From: a virus
Lineage: Duplodnaviria > Caudoviricetes
IMG/VR virus record: IMGVR_UViG_3300005512_000264
Location: 1 to 27,761 of that record
Length of the DNA stretch: 27,761 bases
Direction: 5' to 3' (one strand)
In this document: positions 2,516 to 17,849 of the stretch, piece by piece
Layout of the letters: each line of letters begins with the position of its first letter
How positions within the stretch are numbered: position 1 is the first letter of the stretch
The notes under the pieces: model-generated
The model's input: the letters and a program-made list of their open reading frames with translations, nothing else
Database searches by the model: none
Told to the model about the DNA's origin: nothing
Made by a program: the position numbers and the translations under genes

Positions 2516-2729
2516 TCTCTACATCCGATCGGGCGAGATTTTGATGCTTTTACCCGAGCGCGGCCGCTCTGGCTGTTCGATGATTTACACGCAGCTATTC
2601 CCGGAGGGGCTATCGATCGACATGAACCCCGAGGAGATATACGCCGCAGTTCTCGAGGAGGAAGGCTGGGAGGTCGAGACGGTCGACGAGTATGAGATCG
2701 AAGTCGAGGACGGCGAGGAACACTTCTAA
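2487..2729 (+). CDS. Hypothetical small acidic protein
   Basis: 80-aa ORF overlapping the HNH end, phage-like codon usage, Glu-rich C-terminus. Confidence 0.7.
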
Positions 2730-2759
2730 AAAAAGGCCGCTGTCAAAAGACCAGCGGCC
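2728..2759 (-). terminator. Intrinsic terminator for the minus-strand exonuclease transcript
   Basis: Stem GGCCGCTG (2735-2742)/CAGCGGCC (2752-2759) with A7 at 2728-2734, read as U7 on the minus strand. Confidence 0.75.
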
Positions 2760-2804
2760 GAACCTTTAGGAGTGGTTGATCCCGCAAAGGGAGAGCGGGA
2801 TCGG

Positions 2805-3740
2805 TTAGATACTACTCCGAATAATCAAAGACTTCAAACGAATGGTGCGCGCCTCTTTGGCGGCGACTACGCGCTCCGGCTGGGCTTTGTAATTCCTGAC
2901 CGGCCATTCCACCCGGTAGGGTCCAGCCTGCCCGAGTGTCGCGTCACCCATCGCGGTCATCACCTTGACCTCCAACTCCTCGATCTCGTCGTTCAACTGG
3001 CGCCGGTGATCGCGTAACAGCTCCAGGTGATAGATATCGTTCTCGAGGCCGTTAAGCTCGACCGGAATTTCGTTTTTCTCCGCCGGCGCGATCACCGCAT
3101 CGTCGACATTCACCGGCGGGTAGTAATTTTCAGAAATCACGCGCAGCCGGAAGTCGGTGCAAAGTAGCCCGATCTCGGCCTGAATATCCAAATCCGCGCG
3201 CATGATGGTGATCCGACGCTCAATGCCCCGATGCAGCGTGACAATAATCCCGGTGCTGGCGCCGATCGCCATCATTTGCGCCTGGAGCTGAATGGGTCCG
3301 CGATAAAGTGGGATTTCATCGCTCGGCGGTGCGGTCGTGACCTTGCACTCGATGGGGATACGACCCTGGAGGGTGATCTCGTCGGCGCCTTCAATGCGGA
3401 CTGTTGCGCCTGACGCAACAAGTAGCGGTTCGTCGATCGTGGCAATGCCATCGCATGAGACCTCGAAATCCTCGAGCTTAATCACCGGAGGCGATTGCTC
3501 GACCTGGGTGATGCCCAGAACGTCGCAGGCGTTTTGTATCAGCACCGGCTCGAGCAGATTGCCGACGATGCCCGGCTCTCCGATGTCGGATTCCTGACGC
3601 TCTCCGCGCGCTGCCTGGATCGATTTGCGGAGCTCGTCATTCGGCGTCGACCAGGGATGCCCGACTCCATGATTCCAGCAGTAAAGGACCGGGATGCGAG
3701 ACCCGGACATTTTGGTGTCGTCTGATAATTTTCCGACCAT
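2805..3740 (-). CDS. YqaJ-like viral recombinase / lambda-exonuclease-family nuclease (311 aa)
   Basis: Motifs SGS, STP, GNLLEP, SCDG, IECK, IQLQAQMM. ATG 3740 has an AGGGG SD. The longer 3806 start runs through the promoter region. Confidence 0.85.
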   Translation of the reverse strand: MVGKLSDDTKMSGSRIPVLYCWNHGVGHPWSTPNDELRKSIQAARGERQESDIGEPGIVGNLLEPVLIQNACDVLGITQVEQSPPVIKLEDFEVSCDGIATIDEPLLVASGATVRIEGADEITLQGRIPIECKVTTAPPSDEIPLYRGPIQLQAQMMAIGASTGIIVTLHRGIERRITIMRADLDIQAEIGLLCTDFRLRVISENYYPPVNVDDAVIAPAEKNEIPVELNGLENDIYHLELLRDHRRQLNDEIEELEVKVMTAMGDATLGQAGPYRVEWPVRNYKAQPERVVAAKEARTIRLKSLIIRSSI

Positions 3741-3750
3741 GTTGATCCCC

Positions 3751-3802
3751 TGTTTAATAATTTGACACCCGCCCATGTTACGCGCTAGGCTCGCCGAGTC
3801 AA
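3751..3802. promoter_or_regulatory. Overlapping divergent sigma70 promoters (exonuclease / cro-like)
   Basis: Plus strand: TTGACA 3762-3767, 18 nt, TAGGCT 3786-3791. Minus strand: TTGACT 3802-3797, 16 nt, TAACAT 3780-3775. Confidence 0.6.
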
Positions 3803-6452: not shown

Positions 6453-6877
6453 TGAAAGGCGACCCGACGCGGGTCGCTGATGCGCTGGGTCTGAGGCGGA
6501 TCGGCTCCGAATACAAGGGGCCATGTCCGCTATGCGGCGGAACAGACCGATTCCACGTTAAAACGGGAAAATCCGCCGATGTCCTGGTTCACTGTCGCCA
6601 CGGGTGCAAATACAGCGACCTCGCGAGAGAGCTGGAGCGCCGGGGCATTGTGGACCGGGATGATTACGTCGCACCCACGCATCGCAGGGACGACCTCGAG
6701 CTGGCTGATCACATGATTCTGGTCATGGAAAGCGCCGCCAGGCGCGGCGAAAGAATAAACCCGAGCGACCGCGATGCGGTCACGCGGCTAATAATGAAAG
6801 TGGACGAAAAAAGGGGCGCGCGATTGCGCGAATTGAGGCGACAAATGGGGACCGAAAATGGAGTGGGAAAAGGATGA
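6452..6877 (+). CDS. Stand-alone primase-type zinc-ribbon protein
   Basis: YKGPCPLCGGTDRF...VHCRHGC (P4-alpha/Prim_Zn_ribbon-like). No TOPRIM or AEP motifs in the remaining helical part. Confidence 0.8.
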   Translation: MKGDPTRVADALGLRRIGSEYKGPCPLCGGTDRFHVKTGKSADVLVHCRHGCKYSDLARELERRGIVDRDDYVAPTHRRDDLELADHMILVMESAARRGERINPSDRDAVTRLIMKVDEKRGARLRELRRQMGTENGVGKG

Positions 6878-7979: not shown

Positions 7980-8110
7980 TGTAAAATATGTTTACGAAAT
8001 GTTGTCGAAGTATCAATTCCCTATATATATATATATATCGACAACATTTTCACAAGACACCCTAACCGGGGGCTTTATCAGCACCCCGGCGCCCTTGGGG
8101 GGCGCCTGGG
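7980..8110. other. Putative replication origin
   Basis: AT-rich non-coding stretch directly after the helicase. 12-bp inverted repeat (7997-8008/8038-8049) around (TA)8T, followed by GC-rich hairpins. Confidence 0.55.
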
Positions 8111-8171
8111 GGAGCAGACAAACCCTATCCCGGAAAGGAGTGTCTAGTGTCCCCGGCGGAACAAATTAGCG

Positions 8172-8420: not shown

Positions 8421-8440
8421 TACTGTATGAATTAACAGTG
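8421..8440. promoter_or_regulatory. LexA (SOS) box, gamma/betaproteobacterial type
   Basis: TACTGTATGAATTAACAGTG matches CTGT-N8-ACAG with AT-rich centre and TA flank. Intergenic and next to promoter elements. Confidence 0.75.
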
Positions 8441-8449
8441 TGAAAATAA

Positions 8450-8478
8450 TTTACAGGGGGAGGGGAGAGGAGTAGATT
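8450..8478 (+). promoter_or_regulatory. Sigma70 promoter for small-gene operon
   Basis: TTTACA (8450-8455), 17 nt, TAGATT (8473-8478), with AT-rich upstream sequence. Confidence 0.65.
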
Positions 8479-8524
8479 TAACACATGGCCGGGGTGGTCT
8501 CGGTCAAGAAAGGGAGAGAACGAA

Positions 8525-8758
8525 ATGAAATTTGAAGTCGGAACAACTTACAAAACCCGAAGCGCCTGCAACCATGATTGCATCATTGAAGTGCCGGTTC
8601 TGAAGCGCACAGAAAAAACGATCCGCACAATCGTACACGGCAGAGAAAAGACCCTTCGCATTGGCTTGACTAGCCAGGGCGTTGAATTTGTCTGCCCCTG
8701 GGGTCGTCACTCAATGGCGCCTCTGGTTGACGCAACCGACAAGAATCTGGCCGCGTAA
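8525..8758 (+). CDS. Conserved phage hypothetical protein
   Basis: Strong RBS AAAGGGAGAG. MKFEVGTTYKTRSACNHDC...KRTEKT...SMAP pattern familiar from phage hypotheticals. Confidence 0.85.
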   Translation: MKFEVGTTYKTRSACNHDCIIEVPVLKRTEKTIRTIVHGREKTLRIGLTSQGVEFVCPWGRHSMAPLVDATDKNLAA

Positions 8759-8786
8759 GCGGCCTCAACCAAAGGGAGAGAAAAAA

Positions 8787-13661: not shown

Positions 13662-15169
13662 TGGGAATGTTTGACATTTTCCGCCGGAAGCCGAAGCCGA
13701 TCAAAAAGCGCGGATTCGATGGCGCTTCGACCGGGCGGCTGTTTTCTGATTTTGTGACTTCGCAACGCTCGGCGGACTCCGAGCTGCGTTATTCACTCAA
13801 AACGCTGCGAAACCGCTGTCGGGAGCTGGCGCGCAATAACGAATATGCGCGGCGGTATTTGCATCTAGTAAAAACCAACGTCGTCGGCGAACGCGGCGCG
13901 ACGCTTCAGGTCAAGGCAACCAATGTCGACGGCAGCCTGGACACGATCGGCAACTCGATCATTGAGCAGGAGTGGGCGCGCTGGACGCGCGTCGGAAATT
14001 GCACTGTCGACGGGCGTCTGTCATTTACCGACGCTCAGGCGATGGTCGCGGAGTCTATGGCGCGCGACGGCGAGGCACTGGTGCGCTTTGTCAATTATGA
14101 CGGCAACCAGGACCGATTCGCTCTCGAATTCCTCGAGCCTGATTTGATCGACGAGGAGAAAAACGAGCGCGCGCCAAATGGTAACGAGATCAGAATGGGC
14201 GTCGAGTTCGATCAATACCGGCGCCCGGTCGCTTATCACATGATGACCGAGCACCCTGGCGACTACCAATTCCACCAGTATGATCGCCGCACTCAGCGGG
14301 TCGAAGCGGATAGCATCCTTCATTTGTATATGCCAGACAGAGCCCAGCAAACGCGCGGGGTTCCCTGGATGTCGACGGCGCTGACATCGCTGAAAATGCT
14401 GCATGGCTATCGCGAGGCGGAGCTGGTTGCCGCCAGGACAGCGGCGAGCAAGATGGGCTTTTTCATCTCGCGCTCTGGCGATGGGTTTATGGGTGACGAT
14501 CTCGAGGACAATGTGGTCCCGATCACTGACGCGGAGCCCGGCACGTTTTTCCAGCTCCCCAGAGATGTCGAATTCCAGCCCTGGGACCCATCGCATCCGA
14601 CGACCGCGTTCGGCGATTTTGAAAAGTCGATTCTGCGCGGCATCGCGTCCGGGCTGGGGGTTTCATATCATTCTCTGGCGAATGATTTGACGCAAACCAG
14701 CTACTCCAGCATCCGCCAGGGTAGCATCGAGGACCGCGATTTTTACAAAACGATCCAGAGCTATATGATCGCGCATTTTGTCATGCCGGTTTATCAGCGA
14801 TGGCTGACCAATGCTTTCACGATTGGGCGGGTGAATCTGCCCATCGATAAGTTCGACAAGTTTTATGATGCTTCGCAGTTCCGACCGCGCGGCTTCCAAT
14901 GGGTCGATCCGCAAAAAGAGATTTCCGCCCATGTTGTCGCACTGACAAACGGGCTGATCTCAATGCAGGATGTCGCGAACATTTACGGGCGCGATGTCGA
15001 GGAAGTATTCGCGCAGATTGCCAGAGACAAACAGCTCGCCGAACAGTTCGGCCTGAAGCTGGCATTCGAGCCGTTTGGCGGCGGCCAATCGCCATACGGA
15101 CCCGGCAAGATCAACTTAATGACCGGCGAATCGTTTGACGCGATGACGGAGGAGCCCGATGGCGACTGA
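13661..15169 (+). CDS. Portal protein, lambda family
   Basis: LRNRCRELARNN, DGEAL, QTRGVPW, SYSSIRQG, WVDPQKE. Confidence 0.95.
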   Translation: MGMFDIFRRKPKPIKKRGFDGASTGRLFSDFVTSQRSADSELRYSLKTLRNRCRELARNNEYARRYLHLVKTNVVGERGATLQVKATNVDGSLDTIGNSIIEQEWARWTRVGNCTVDGRLSFTDAQAMVAESMARDGEALVRFVNYDGNQDRFALEFLEPDLIDEEKNERAPNGNEIRMGVEFDQYRRPVAYHMMTEHPGDYQFHQYDRRTQRVEADSILHLYMPDRAQQTRGVPWMSTALTSLKMLHGYREAELVAARTAASKMGFFISRSGDGFMGDDLEDNVVPITDAEPGTFFQLPRDVEFQPWDPSHPTTAFGDFEKSILRGIASGLGVSYHSLANDLTQTSYSSIRQGSIEDRDFYKTIQSYMIAHFVMPVYQRWLTNAFTIGRVNLPIDKFDKFYDASQFRPRGFQWVDPQKEISAHVVALTNGLISMQDVANIYGRDVEEVFAQIARDKQLAEQFGLKLAFEPFGGGQSPYGPGKINLMTGESFDAMTEEPDGD

Positions 15170-17849
15170 CTTTCCGAAGAAAGGCGACGACCAGAAGATA
15201 TCGCTTCGCAATTCCGAATATCCGCAATTCGACCGTGAATTCGCGGAGAACATCAAGGAATTCAACTCCGAGGTTTGGGCGCTCGGCGGGAATGTCCGGG
15301 GCAATGATGCGTTCCGGCTGTGGGGAAGCGCGCGCGATGGCGATGAGGCTGGCTCGGTGTTGGACTGGATCAAAGAGCGGGAAGCCTGGGCCGCGCGTCA
15401 TTTTGAGGATGGCGCCCATCTATCGAGCGAGGAGCCGAACAAAAGCAATATCGCCGGCGTCGTCGCTCAAATGAAATGGGGTGTCATTGGCACCCTGGGC
15501 GAGCAAGGCATGAAGGACGCGATTCTCGAGCTGATCAAAAAGCTGGAAGGCAAGAAAGAGGACCGCCAGCTCTCCGATCAGGTCGAGACCGCACTCGAGA
15601 ATAAGCGCGACGAGCACAACGAGGAGGTGGGCGACGATCCGCTCCGCCGCGTTACGCTTGCCATGTTGCGCGAAGTAATGGAGCGCGGGATCGGCGCGTA
15701 TAAGACAAACCCCGGCTCGGTTCGCCCTGGCGTGAGCTCCCCGGAACAGTGGGGATATGCCAGGGTTAATTCGTTTTTGTTTGCAATGAAGAACGACCGA
15801 TTCCAGGGCGGCAAACATGACACCGACTTATTCCCCGACGGTCATCCGCTGGCGTCAGATGATGAAAGCGAGAAAGCGGCGGAGTATACTGGCAAGATGG
15901 AAGAATCAGGAGATCGCGCAGTGGAACAGCGACATATCAAAAACGTCGTCGAGACCGACGACGAGATCATCATCACATTCGGGAAATCTATGCCCGAGGA
16001 GGAAGCGGCGGACGAGCCTGATATCGTGGAGGCCGTCGACGATTACGACGAGGAGCGCCTCTCGAAATCCGAGGTATTTCATCGGATGGAACACGCCGAG
16101 GTCGAGGAGAAAGACGACCGGCGCGTTCAAATGTCCGTCTCGAGCGAGCAGGAAGTCGAGCGATCATTCGGTCGCGAGCTGATTGTTCACACCGAGGAAA
16201 CGCTCGACCTTAAATTTTTACGATCCGGCAGCGCGCCGCTGCTATTAGATCACGACCCCGAACGACAAATCGGGGTCATTGAATCCGTAAATCTCGACGG
16301 ATCGGCCCGGCGTCTCCGGGCGACGGTGCGCTTTGGAAAGGGTGCGCTTGCTGACGAGGTTTATCAGGATGTGCTCGACGGCATTCGCTCGAATGTCTCG
16401 ATCGGGTACAAAGTTCGGCGAATGGAAAGGGACAAGGACGAACAGGATTTGTTCCGAGTAATCGATGCCGAAATCATGGAGGTCTCTATCGTTTCACTTC
16501 CCGCCGACCCGTCGGTCGGTGTGGGGCGTTCGGTCGAGGTATCCGACACCGCTACCATTAAACCCATCGAAAAGGAGGTTCCTATCATGGAACAAGAAAA
16601 CCAAATCGATTTGGATCAGGTACGCGCGGAAGCCGCTGCCGAACGATCCAAGGAAGTAAACGAAATGCTCGGCCTGGCCGCCAAGCACAATCAGCGTTCA
16701 TTCGCTGACGACGCTATCCGCCAGGGCATGACATTGGCGCAGTTCCGGGGCGCTTTGTTGGACAAGATTGCCGACAAGCCGCTGGACGTCGCTGACGTTG
16801 AGCTGACACCAAAAGAGGAGCGACAATATAGCTTGATCAACGCAATCCGATCAGCGCAGACAGGCCGATTTGACGGCTTCGAGCGTGAGGTATCGGAGGA
16901 GCTTGCCAAGCGATATGGCAAGGAGCCGCGCGGTTTCTACGTTCCTTCCAGCATCTTCAAGCGGGATTTGACGGTCGGCACCAACGCCGCCGGCGGATTT
17001 TTGAAGCCAACCGACCACCTTGGCGGTGAGTTCATCGACGCGCTTCGCGCGAACCTGGTGATCTCTAGCCTGGGCGCTCGCATGATGCAAGGACTGAAGG
17101 GCGACGTCGCCATTCCTGCACTGAATGCCAAGACCTCAGTCGGCTTTGTCGCTGAGAACGCGGCGCCCGGTGCTGAAGGCGCTCCGACTTTCCGACAGGT
17201 AACGATGTCACCCAAGACTCTGGTTCAGTACGTTGATATCTCTCGCAAGCTGTCAATGCAATCTGATCCCAGCGTCGAGCAGGTGATCCGCGACGATCTG
17301 ACCCGCCAATTCGCGGCGAAGATTGACGAAGTGGCAATCGAGGGCGGCGGTTCTAACGAGCCGGAAGGCATCACCCAGACCAGCGGCATCGGTTCCGTTG
17401 TAATGGGCAACAACGGCGGTGCGGTTACTTACGCCAAGCTGGTCGACCTCGAGAAGGAAGTCGCCATCGACAACGCGCTGGCTGGAAATCTGGCATACCT
17501 CACCAACCCGAAAGTGGTCGGTGCTATGCGTCAGACTCCGCGCCAGGCGAGCGGTGTTGAGGGTAACTTCATCCTGAACGACAGCAACACCCTGCTGGGT
17601 TACAACGTAGCAAGCTCGACGCTTGTTCCTTCGGATTTGACCAAAGGAACCAGCTCTGGTGTTTGCTCGGCTATAATCTTCGGAAACTTCAATGACCTGA
17701 TGATCGGCATGTTCGGCGGTCTCGATGTGCTGGTTGATCCCTACACCGGATCAGCTACCGGCGCGACCCGAATCGCGATGTATCAGGACATTGATGTCGC
17801 TGTCCGTCATGCGGAATCGTTCGCTGCGATTCTGGACGTCACGACTTAA
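15159..17849 (+). CDS. Fusion of N-terminal accessory domains, HK97-type prohead protease and major capsid protein
   Basis: Protease motifs LLLDHD, NVSIGY, EVSIVSLPADPSVGVGRS. HK97-fold capsid motifs GGFLKPTD, GNFNDLMIG, DVAVRHAESF. Confidence 0.93.
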   Translation: MATDFPKKGDDQKISLRNSEYPQFDREFAENIKEFNSEVWALGGNVRGNDAFRLWGSARDGDEAGSVLDWIKEREAWAARHFEDGAHLSSEEPNKSNIAGVVAQMKWGVIGTLGEQGMKDAILELIKKLEGKKEDRQLSDQVETALENKRDEHNEEVGDDPLRRVTLAMLREVMERGIGAYKTNPGSVRPGVSSPEQWGYARVNSFLFAMKNDRFQGGKHDTDLFPDGHPLASDDESEKAAEYTGKMEESGDRAVEQRHIKNVVETDDEIIITFGKSMPEEEAADEPDIVEAVDDYDEERLSKSEVFHRMEHAEVEEKDDRRVQMSVSSEQEVERSFGRELIVHTEETLDLKFLRSGSAPLLLDHDPERQIGVIESVNLDGSARRLRATVRFGKGALADEVYQDVLDGIRSNVSIGYKVRRMERDKDEQDLFRVIDAEIMEVSIVSLPADPSVGVGRSVEVSDTATIKPIEKEVPIMEQENQIDLDQVRAEAAAERSKEVNEMLGLAAKHNQRSFADDAIRQGMTLAQFRGALLDKIADKPLDVADVELTPKEERQYSLINAIRSAQTGRFDGFEREVSEELAKRYGKEPRGFYVPSSIFKRDLTVGTNAAGGFLKPTDHLGGEFIDALRANLVISSLGARMMQGLKGDVAIPALNAKTSVGFVAENAAPGAEGAPTFRQVTMSPKTLVQYVDISRKLSMQSDPSVEQVIRDDLTRQFAAKIDEVAIEGGGSNEPEGITQTSGIGSVVMGNNGGAVTYAKLVDLEKEVAIDNALAGNLAYLTNPKVVGAMRQTPRQASGVEGNFILNDSNTLLGYNVASSTLVPSDLTKGTSSGVCSAIIFGNFNDLMIGMFGGLDVLVDPYTGSATGATRIAMYQDIDVAVRHAESFAAILDVTT
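16587..17849 (+). CDS. Major capsid protein from nested in-frame start (420 aa)
   Basis: AAGGAGGT at 16572-16579, 7 nt before in-frame ATG 16587, at the protease/capsid boundary. Confidence 0.7.
   Translation: MEQENQIDLDQVRAEAAAERSKEVNEMLGLAAKHNQRSFADDAIRQGMTLAQFRGALLDKIADKPLDVADVELTPKEERQYSLINAIRSAQTGRFDGFEREVSEELAKRYGKEPRGFYVPSSIFKRDLTVGTNAAGGFLKPTDHLGGEFIDALRANLVISSLGARMMQGLKGDVAIPALNAKTSVGFVAENAAPGAEGAPTFRQVTMSPKTLVQYVDISRKLSMQSDPSVEQVIRDDLTRQFAAKIDEVAIEGGGSNEPEGITQTSGIGSVVMGNNGGAVTYAKLVDLEKEVAIDNALAGNLAYLTNPKVVGAMRQTPRQASGVEGNFILNDSNTLLGYNVASSTLVPSDLTKGTSSGVCSAIIFGNFNDLMIGMFGGLDVLVDPYTGSATGATRIAMYQDIDVAVRHAESFAAILDVTT

Follow-up and report, generated by a model that had tools for sequence, protein, structure and literature searches.

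The window, a stretch of 27,761 nt, represents a complete circular genome of 27,638 bp with a 123-nt terminal repeat, and carries siphovirus head, tail and lysis genes. The RusA, Sak4 and SSB genes lie on the plus strand, together with a Cro-like gene, a primase gene and a helicase gene; the sole minus-strand gene recognised encodes an exonuclease. The main landmarks of this region are as follows.

2805..3740, minus strand: RecE/YqaJ-like exonuclease of 311 aa (phrog_434, by translation), inside which the putative sRNA promoter sits
3762, plus strand: TTGACA of a divergent promoter
3802-3775, minus strand: the partner of this divergent promoter
3821, plus strand: Cro-like HTH gene
6452, plus strand: primase zinc-finger gene
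6858 (ATG), plus strand: AAA_25 helicase gene

The two sigma70-like promoters at 3762-3802 overlap between the exonuclease and the Cro-like gene, giving a lambda-like switch region in which the exonuclease and sRNA are found in place of cI. The genome has 201 open reading frames of at least 45 aa, of which 47 were scanned against PHROGs, 20 against Pfam and 50 more against Pfam; an integrase, a CI-type repressor or a partition protein was not matched in any of these scans, and the further 50 frames gave no Pfam match of any kind. A search for a tyrosine integrase was also negative in all five related records, two of which are at least 90% complete. Cultured phages are distant matches only (the MEP301 exonuclease, at 31.6%, followed by an ERF gene; the terminase at no more than 56%). 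Among the structural genes, an 896-aa protein (15159-17849) matches major head and head-protease families over its C-terminal two-thirds, whilst the N-terminal residues, approximately 315 in number, have no family match.

The 77 nt beyond the exonuclease stop codon (2728-2804) had been described in a first-pass annotation, made from the letters alone, as a structured 3' UTR RNA folding into three hairpins, the loops of which are antisense to the ribosome binding sites of the phage. All the strings it quoted were found where it had placed them, and the three hairpins are recovered with a folding energy of -35.8 kcal/mol (z -5.6), a stability attained by none of 200 shuffled sequences. The plus strand folds with equal stability, hence the strand is not given by folding alone; comparison of G-U counts (68 vs 50) and of energies (31 vs 21) likewise left it undecided. 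The element and its flanking signals comprise:

2832..2837, minus strand: -35 element TTGAAG, in Leu-Lys codons near the exonuclease C terminus
2809..2814, minus strand: -10 element TAGTAT, 17 nt from the -35
2728..2802, minus strand: predicted sRNA of about 75 nt, with its putative start 7 nt behind the -10
2778..2802, minus strand: hairpin 1, with an 8 bp stem and the loop UCUCCCUUU (seed 1), the predicted partner of which is AAAGGGAGA at 8509 and 8771
2760..2777, minus strand: linker or weak hairpin 2, bearing CCACUCCUAAAGGUUC (seed 2), the predicted partner of which is the helicase start
2728..2759, minus strand: one-way intrinsic terminator, with a 10 bp bulged stem and 7 U

The conservation of these features was assessed in relatives identified through the exonuclease. 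Scans at a threshold of at least 45% identity entered 75 loci, same-contig duplicates and loci lacking the 3' end being left out; one was too short, and the remainder collapse to 54 distinct 3' regions, 28 in clade A (including this genome) and 26 in clade B. The sRNA unit is kept in all 54, down to 45% exonuclease identity, each having a sigma70-like promoter, a 5' hairpin, an unpaired C/U-rich anti-SD seed and a one-way terminator, with predicted RNA lengths of 50-82 nt. A scan of GTDB revealed a single 3.8-kb contig, assigned to an uncultured Thermoplasmatales (archaeal) bin, which is the clade B member L084; as its promoter is of the sigma70 type, this assignment is probably an instance of mis-binning.

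The promoter appears to be written into the exonuclease codons. In clade A, the Leu codon of an R-L-K motif is TTG in all 28 regions, and the -10 hexamer has A at its second and T at its sixth position in 28 of 28 and the form T-A-N-N-N-T in 27, in spite of eight spellings between which the encoded residues vary. In clade B, the first Leu is TTG in just 9 of 26 regions, with no -10 behind it; the TTG constraint instead applies three codons further on (26/26), followed by a -10 core at 17 nt in 22 regions and at 16-18 nt in all 26. Hence the constrained Leu and the -10 have shifted jointly by three codons between the clades. As A and B each form one clade on the exonuclease tree, this is a single event, and the constraint has been maintained over long branches. 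By comparison, TTG accounts for 178 of 1,259 Leu codons overall (14%); it occupies the -35 Leu column in 24 of 24 sequences, the next Leu in 11 of 24 and each of 13 other conserved Leu columns in no more than 5 of 24, and no other conserved Leu column among 49 full-length proteins combines TTG with a -10. With few exceptions across the 54 regions, the putative transcription start coincides with the foot of hairpin 1 or lies within a few nucleotides of it; L040, with a start 9 nt before the hairpin foot, is the clear outlier.

At the other end of the unit, all 54 regions have at least five U residues behind the last stem on the exonuclease strand, a count that owes something to how the ends were defined, and none of the 54 has them on the opposite strand. 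Together, the promoter and the one-way U tract fix the strand as minus. This bears on an alternative raised by the first-pass annotation, that the plus strand presents GGA loops as a sponge for CsrA/RsmA in the manner of CsrB/RsmZ. Both loops do show GGA on this strand in the window, and at least one unpaired GGA is found in 40 of 54 antisense folds; however, just 13 of 54 have two or more, the GGA follows directly from complementarity to the anti-SD seed, and the promoter and U tract lie on the opposite strand in all 54, making such a sponge very improbable. Separately, a sib-like role was considered and rejected, the long plus-strand stem it relied upon (2722-2731/2765-2774) being absent from most relatives' folds, and a small plus-strand open reading frame at 2772-3017 had no PHROG or Pfam match.

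Since the element has a promoter of its own, it is more than the 3' UTR product that was originally proposed, and on sequence grounds looks like a stand-alone gene. A promoter and an intrinsic terminator around a non-coding unit of 50-250 nt, as in the general class of trans-encoded sRNAs, are present here on comparative evidence. A consensus scan called neither signal, as the window's promoter, with 8 of 12 matches, lies below the cut-off and the terminator stem is bulged. Assembled contigs from four RNA runs included one of 269 nt from a relative less than 90% alike, covering 3001-3269, and none over the element. Hence we infer expression from the codon constraint and the one-way terminator. 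Overall, there is strong comparative support for a genuine, family-wide sRNA gene, apparently undescribed.

The late operon converges on this unit, and the stop codon of its last gene (2487-2729) overlaps the A-run of the terminator (2728-2734). As no plus-strand terminator was found here, late transcripts would run antisense through both the sRNA and the exonuclease gene; with the U tract absent from this strand in all 54 regions, the read-through would be fully complementary to the sRNA. The RNA might therefore act in cis alone, as an antisense buffer against late read-through into the exonuclease gene, its motifs being incidental. We consider this quite unlikely, as cis pairing needs no conserved sequence, yet ACUCC (27/28 in clade A) and CAU (26/26 in clade B) are kept while the stems drift, and the seeds co-vary with distant translation starts, as described below.

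Beyond the family, the position is occupied differently. Of 38 more distant loci bearing the exonuclease, 33 have a protein gene whose start lies no more than 5 nt from the exonuclease stop codon; 8 of 13 such proteins, picked by eye and standing for 14 of the 38 loci, are stand-alone LexA DNA-binding domains. These genes encode around 70 aa, lack a peptidase domain, and lie directly behind the stop codon in L055, L057, L058, L065, L067, L072, L077 and L080. Searching IMG/VR with the clade A promoter-hairpin-seed pattern returned 17 contigs, all within the family, and the clade B pattern gave 115 matches; of 112 new loci checked, six proved to be family members already known by sequence, one was terminator-like without an exonuclease, and the rest were taken as chance. 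A scan with the helicase found no new locus carrying both RNA and target, and supplied two held-out joins considered below.

The structure of the RNA is evident from its folding and from two-sided changes in the stem of hairpin 1 (U-A/C-G, A-U/G-C and C-G/G-C), the loop of which varies. Stem pairs were taken from single folds, since 22 RNAs aligned with MAFFT matched too poorly within the hairpin for pairs to be counted. The loop word CCCUUU is kept in 20 of 28 clade A RNAs. The second hairpin described in the first-pass annotation (AACC/GGUU) does form in the 77-nt fold, but it is weak, is replaced by a longer stem once the flanks are included, and is not general, this stretch being single-stranded or shut by another short stem in most relatives. 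The ACUCC it contains is the most conserved seed of clade A, and CUCC has an unpaired probability of 0.98 in this genome. Every one of the 54 RNAs has a UCCC, CUCC or CCCU word, and in 43 accessible pairing with a canonical SD is better than that of shuffled bodies. Clade B RNAs additionally contain CAU (26/26), mostly as (G/U)UU?CAU (23/26), so that most are the reverse complement of an SD, a spacer and a start codon. The few plus-strand SD and ATG combinations this implies that were inspected by eye opened only short, unrelated frames.

Predicted pairing with the phage genome was scored by a custom IntaRNA-like heuristic, which sums the hybrid energy and the opening energies. Among 3,065 windows from both strands, the four best were the spacer of the promoter at 8460, the RBS of gene 8525, the helicase start and the RBS of gene 8787; hence three of the four are translation starts. 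All are at a distance of 4-6 kb from the element and on the opposite strand.

6849..6866, plus strand: helicase start, the predicted main target, at which GGACC and GGAGUGG pair with the linker
8423..8438, plus strand: LexA-box-like palindrome upstream of the promoter of the 8525 operon (8450-8478)
8509..8517, plus strand: RBS of gene 8525, predicted loop 1 target, 9 bp (-11.6 to -11.8 kcal/mol, rank 2 of 3,065)
8770..8780, plus strand: RBS of gene 8787, predicted loop 1 target (-8.7 to -9.6 kcal/mol, rank 4)

The duplex at the helicase start has a predicted energy of about -11.6 to -11.7 kcal/mol. The identity noted in the first-pass annotation between the plus-strand sequence of loop 1 and the RBSs of genes 8525 and 8787 was borne out: AAAGGGAGAG has exactly three copies in the genome, all on the plus strand, at 2786 (loop 1), 8509 and 8771, the latter two located 6 nt ahead of the start codons of genes 8525 and 8787. 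AGGAGTG, the second motif it listed, has four copies (2768, 5983, 8136 and 13968). Those at the SSB gene and at 8136 are present as it stated, but pairing at the SSB start is weak (-3.5 kcal/mol), and 8136 does not qualify as a conserved RBS, since in L003 GTA replaces the GTG that follows. Shuffled seeds equalled the predicted energy in 12 of 300 trials for the helicase, 7 for gene 8525, 3 for gene 8787 and 45 for SSB. The central proposal of a trans-acting, minus-strand anti-RBS RNA is consistent with the ranks of 8509 and 8771, though the most conserved seed proved to be the ACUCC linker and the co-varying target the helicase start, which had not been listed.

In order to relate seeds to targets, we compared the window and 30 of the 35 loci having both the RNA and the helicase gene, five near-duplicates being dropped, in 20 hand-defined groups (8 in clade A, 12 in clade B). 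Helicase starts were picked by eye and others by script, which mis-picked the 8787 start of L009, and the cognate and non-cognate fits were calculated after double-centring. In clade A, the helicase start has a cognate fit of -7.8 against a foreign fit of -5.6 kcal/mol (z -3.2, p 0.0017-0.0026, 8 groups), the lower value being narrowly below the Bonferroni line for 15 genes. Every leave-one-out p value is at most 0.017, masking of the SD leaves p 0.0018, and the helicase is the best of seven core starts in 10 of 18 clade A loci. Weaker scores were found for SSB, the exonuclease and RusA (p 0.005-0.017), while no pairing was seen for the clade A primase, a gene that in most cases lacks an SD and is coupled to SSB. 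In clade B, cognate fit was detected for the primase (p 0.0012), Sak4 (0.0001) and the exonuclease (0.0015). With the SD masked, Sak4 (p 0.0001) and SSB persist, whilst the primase signal is lost (p 0.26), because anti-start pairing is common to the whole clade rather than co-varying. The genes for Cro (p 0.89), lysozyme, HNH, 2487, 9096, 9295 and 9594 showed no co-variation. As A and B are each one clade, contrasts between them count as single events.

Individual loci illustrate how the predicted pairing changes. In L040/L041, GUCUGGCGUUCUCCC pairs with GGGAGA-CA-AUGCCAGA, giving 18 bp over the helicase SD; in L019/L020, CUCCUAAGAGUC pairs with GACUCAUAGGGG and UAAGAGUC lies against GACUCAU; L167 places AUUCAUGG against CCAUGAAU; and L042 has 19 bp over the SD and start of the primase gene, GUGAACUC. 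On the target side, the anti-start tract GUUCAU requires a second codon of the form RRY: in clade B this is present in 10 of 12 groups for the primase, 11 for the helicase and 8 for Sak4, as against 0-4.5 of 12 for other genes, and in clade A in 2, 4.2 and 2 of 8 groups respectively.

Other measures were less clear-cut. Energies calculated from duplexes alone, with accessibility disregarded, are noisier (helicase p 0.010 in clade A, with RusA above the helicase in the window), as are unconstrained duplex energies, and for nine out of 23 RNAs, that of the window being one, whole-body shuffles equalled the cognate value in at least 10 of 60 trials. The held-out joins gave middling results for a conserved, unpaired seed complementary to distant translation starts, the other feature of trans-encoded sRNAs present here: the L023 RNA on the L218 helicase (the same phage, with 99.7% overlap) scored -7.6 and ranked 15 of 54 RNAs, and the L110 RNA on L228 scored -6.7 for the primase (rank 17 of 54) and -10.6 for Sak4 (rank 5).

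These comparisons also weigh on the possibility that the RNA serves chiefly to silence, by way of loop 1, the LexA-adjacent 8525/8787 operon. Perfect matches of 9-11 nt occur at these RBSs only, they rank second and fourth genome-wide, the sites persist in the window's own group and L007, and good fits are found in L003 and L007, as well as for the first post-origin genes of L028, L030, L036 and L100. However, the expected co-variation of the loop with these RBSs did not clearly emerge: the AAAGGGAGA RBS is fixed in clades whose loop 1 has become UUACCCUUU, and remains unchanged in L009/L011/L016, where loop 1 is mismatched and no site below -6 exists at annotated starts. Furthermore, the loop motif is missing from L014, L022, L026 and L027, the clade A p value for 8787 is 0.06, affected by the mis-picked L009 start, and the LexA-box-like palindrome upstream is confined to 8 of the 25 loci with enough sequence, being at the same position only in the three groups nearest the window. 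Hence this operon is improbable as the main target.

A stronger competitor is that the RNA is real but acts mainly on host mRNAs, or by competing for Hfq as VpdS does, with the fit to phage RBSs reflecting an SD style shared with the host. Several phage genes co-vary simultaneously, and since these include the SSB and exonuclease starts, part of the signal may indeed stem from an SD style that the host imposes on all of them. Moreover, the short anti-SD seeds of AbcR and NfeR1 pair with many RBSs (PMC7143759), and Hfq and host mRNAs are the targets described for VpdS and PreS (PMC12197685). Against this, the helicase signal of clade A and the Sak4 signal of clade B outlast masking of the SD, Cro SDs are strong and yet show no co-variation (p 0.89), and the anti-start tract fits the second codons of three replication genes; we therefore regard a predominantly host-directed role as unlikely, albeit less so than the other alternatives above. 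There is moderate support for the phage replication genes being the targets, the relationship being that of a multi-target seed with lineage-specific preferences centred on these genes, and not of a one-to-one antisense pair.

No match at the Rfam gathering threshold was found for the window or 14 relatives, a check proposed in the first-pass annotation. The weak scores were to anti-hemB (RF02837, 27 against 49.5 bits), suhB (RF00519, 16.5 against 41) and Spot 42; the P4 CI and P1 C4 families are not among these three, and no other anti-SD family appeared up to an E value of 10. These scores for anti-hemB, suhB/MmgR and Spot 42 reflect a shared anatomy. MmgR/SuhB, AbcR1/2 and NfeR1 (alpha-r14/cuckoo) are anti-SD sRNAs of Alphaproteobacteria, and anti-hemB is found in Burkholderia. 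The present RNA resembles these in size and in the succession of a hairpin, an unpaired anti-SD stretch and a terminator, and, by prediction, resembles the alphaproteobacterial examples in having several RBS targets (PMC7143759). It differs from them in being phage-encoded, in having seeds that track phage replication genes and, in clade B, in its anti-start-codon tract. DapZ and MicL, which are chromosomal and unrelated in sequence, have a similar build, whereas here the promoter lies within exonuclease codons and has moved three codons between clades.

Among phage RNAs, the P4 CI and P1 C4 immunity RNAs form one group with the N15 CA RNA. P4 CI keeps replication genes off without a protein repressor, and is processed from the leader it controls, acting through premature termination at seqA/seqC (PMC4825925). 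The likeness to P4 CI that was originally suggested thus holds for purpose but not for predicted mechanism, a block to translation initiation: the present RNA has its own promoter rather than being processed from a leader with target sites on either side, is encoded 4 kb away from its predicted targets on the other strand, and would pair imperfectly with translation starts. Short phage RNAs controlling phage mRNAs, as predicted here, include P22 sar, lambda OOP, aQ and BTP1 STnc6030, which are antisense to antirepressor, cII, Q or tailspike mRNAs and shape the outcome of the lysis-lysogeny decision or of superinfection (PMC12197685); unlike these, the RNA would be trans-encoded, with short, imperfect pairing to multiple replication genes. 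VpdS, PreS, 24B_1 and svsR are also trans-acting phage sRNAs, with Hfq, host dnaN, a phage antirepressor and host maltodextrin genes as targets (PMC12197685, PMC12803456), whereas the predicted target here is the start of a phage helicase or primase gene. The excerpted text of a 2025 review, which covers sar, OOP, aQ, 24B_1, VpdS, PreS, DicF, STnc6030 and sas, includes no trans RNA against a phage's own helicase or primase start (PMC12197685), and excerpts of PMC12803456 and PMC5737381 contain nothing closer. No publication on this element appeared among the titles and abstract openings returned by a literature search, and six motif strings were absent from seven supplementary files of PMC10690425.

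Taken together, we favour, with reasonable though not high confidence, an independent, trans-acting sRNA expressed from a promoter-like signal within the exonuclease gene, which is predicted to pair with the starts of phage early genes, the helicase foremost, and so would damp replication. Host sigma70 RNA polymerase would start at around 2802 and stop at the U tract at 2728, with the 5' hairpin and the terminator protecting a short RNA that displays one or two C/U-rich seeds; assistance by host Hfq is plausible in view of this anatomy. The linker seed is predicted to nucleate on the SD or first codons of the helicase mRNA and to extend into a second short helix, while loop 1 is predicted to bind the AAAGGGAGA RBSs of the 8525 operon, and in clade B the 5' GUUCAU tract would also cover the start codons of the primase, helicase and Sak4 genes. 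On balance, then, the promoter is probably a constitutive one of the sigma70 type, and the RNA probably occludes the helicase start and, depending on the lineage, those of the primase, Sak4 and early genes with strong SDs. Ribosome loading would presumably be lowered and a threshold for replication set, which may, speculatively, postpone the lytic burst or restrain superinfection by related phages.

That neither CI nor an integrase was matched in the sequence scans is compatible with an RNA taking over the role of a protein repressor. It is more doubtful that the RNA is the sole repressor of the phage, an RNA-only switch in a family that does not integrate. Under such a scheme, RNA made from the start of infection would hold down translation of the helicase and primase, so maintaining the phage in a low-copy carrier state in which related phages would be shut out as well; the SOS-controlled 8525 transcript, with its several perfect loop 1 sites, would titrate the RNA and lead to lysis, and late read-through, being fully antisense, would also titrate it and commit the cell to lysis. 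The sRNA occupies the slot behind the exonuclease gene that holds a LexA-type gene in many distant relatives, so that a protein regulator may have been replaced by RNA. The carrier state, superinfection exclusion and titration, whether by the SOS-box operon or late read-through, are speculative.

Most characterised phage RNAs that act on phage genes are either cis-antisense or derived from leaders; the trans-acting examples described in excerpts of PMC12197685 act on host mRNAs, Hfq or an antirepressor. The uncultured family studied here appears to keep a trans RNA that co-evolves with the starts of the phages' own replication genes, and neither CI nor an integrase could be recognised in these genomes. 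If confirmed, this would provide a testable way in which lysis could be delayed, or carrier states and superinfection exclusion arise, with no protein repressor. It would also offer naturally occurring seed-target pairs that could be assayed in E. coli reporters with no need for phage culture, and a clean case of a promoter that is embedded in coding sequence and has shifted its position there.

Further features were observed around the early genes. Directly behind the helicase gene, a (TA)8 tract flanked by a 12-bp inverted repeat (7997-8049) is likely to be the replication origin, and TA tracts are found at the same place in 11 of 25 loci. At 8423-8520, the three groups nearest the window share the LexA-like box, a promoter with a purine-rich spacer and a leader composed of a hairpin plus AAAGGGAGA, whereas the N terminus of the first gene to follow differs in each of the seven loci shown; this is an exchangeable gene slot, possibly under SOS control. 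Lastly, a near-invariant GC hairpin with a GUAA-type loop (8749-8764) precedes the RBS of small post-origin genes by 5-25 nt, with no U tract behind it, in 11 of 25 loci across both clades, namely the window, L003, L007, L009, L016, L020 (three copies), L022, L027, L100, L167 and L169 (two copies), and may be a processing, stabilising or protein-binding cassette.
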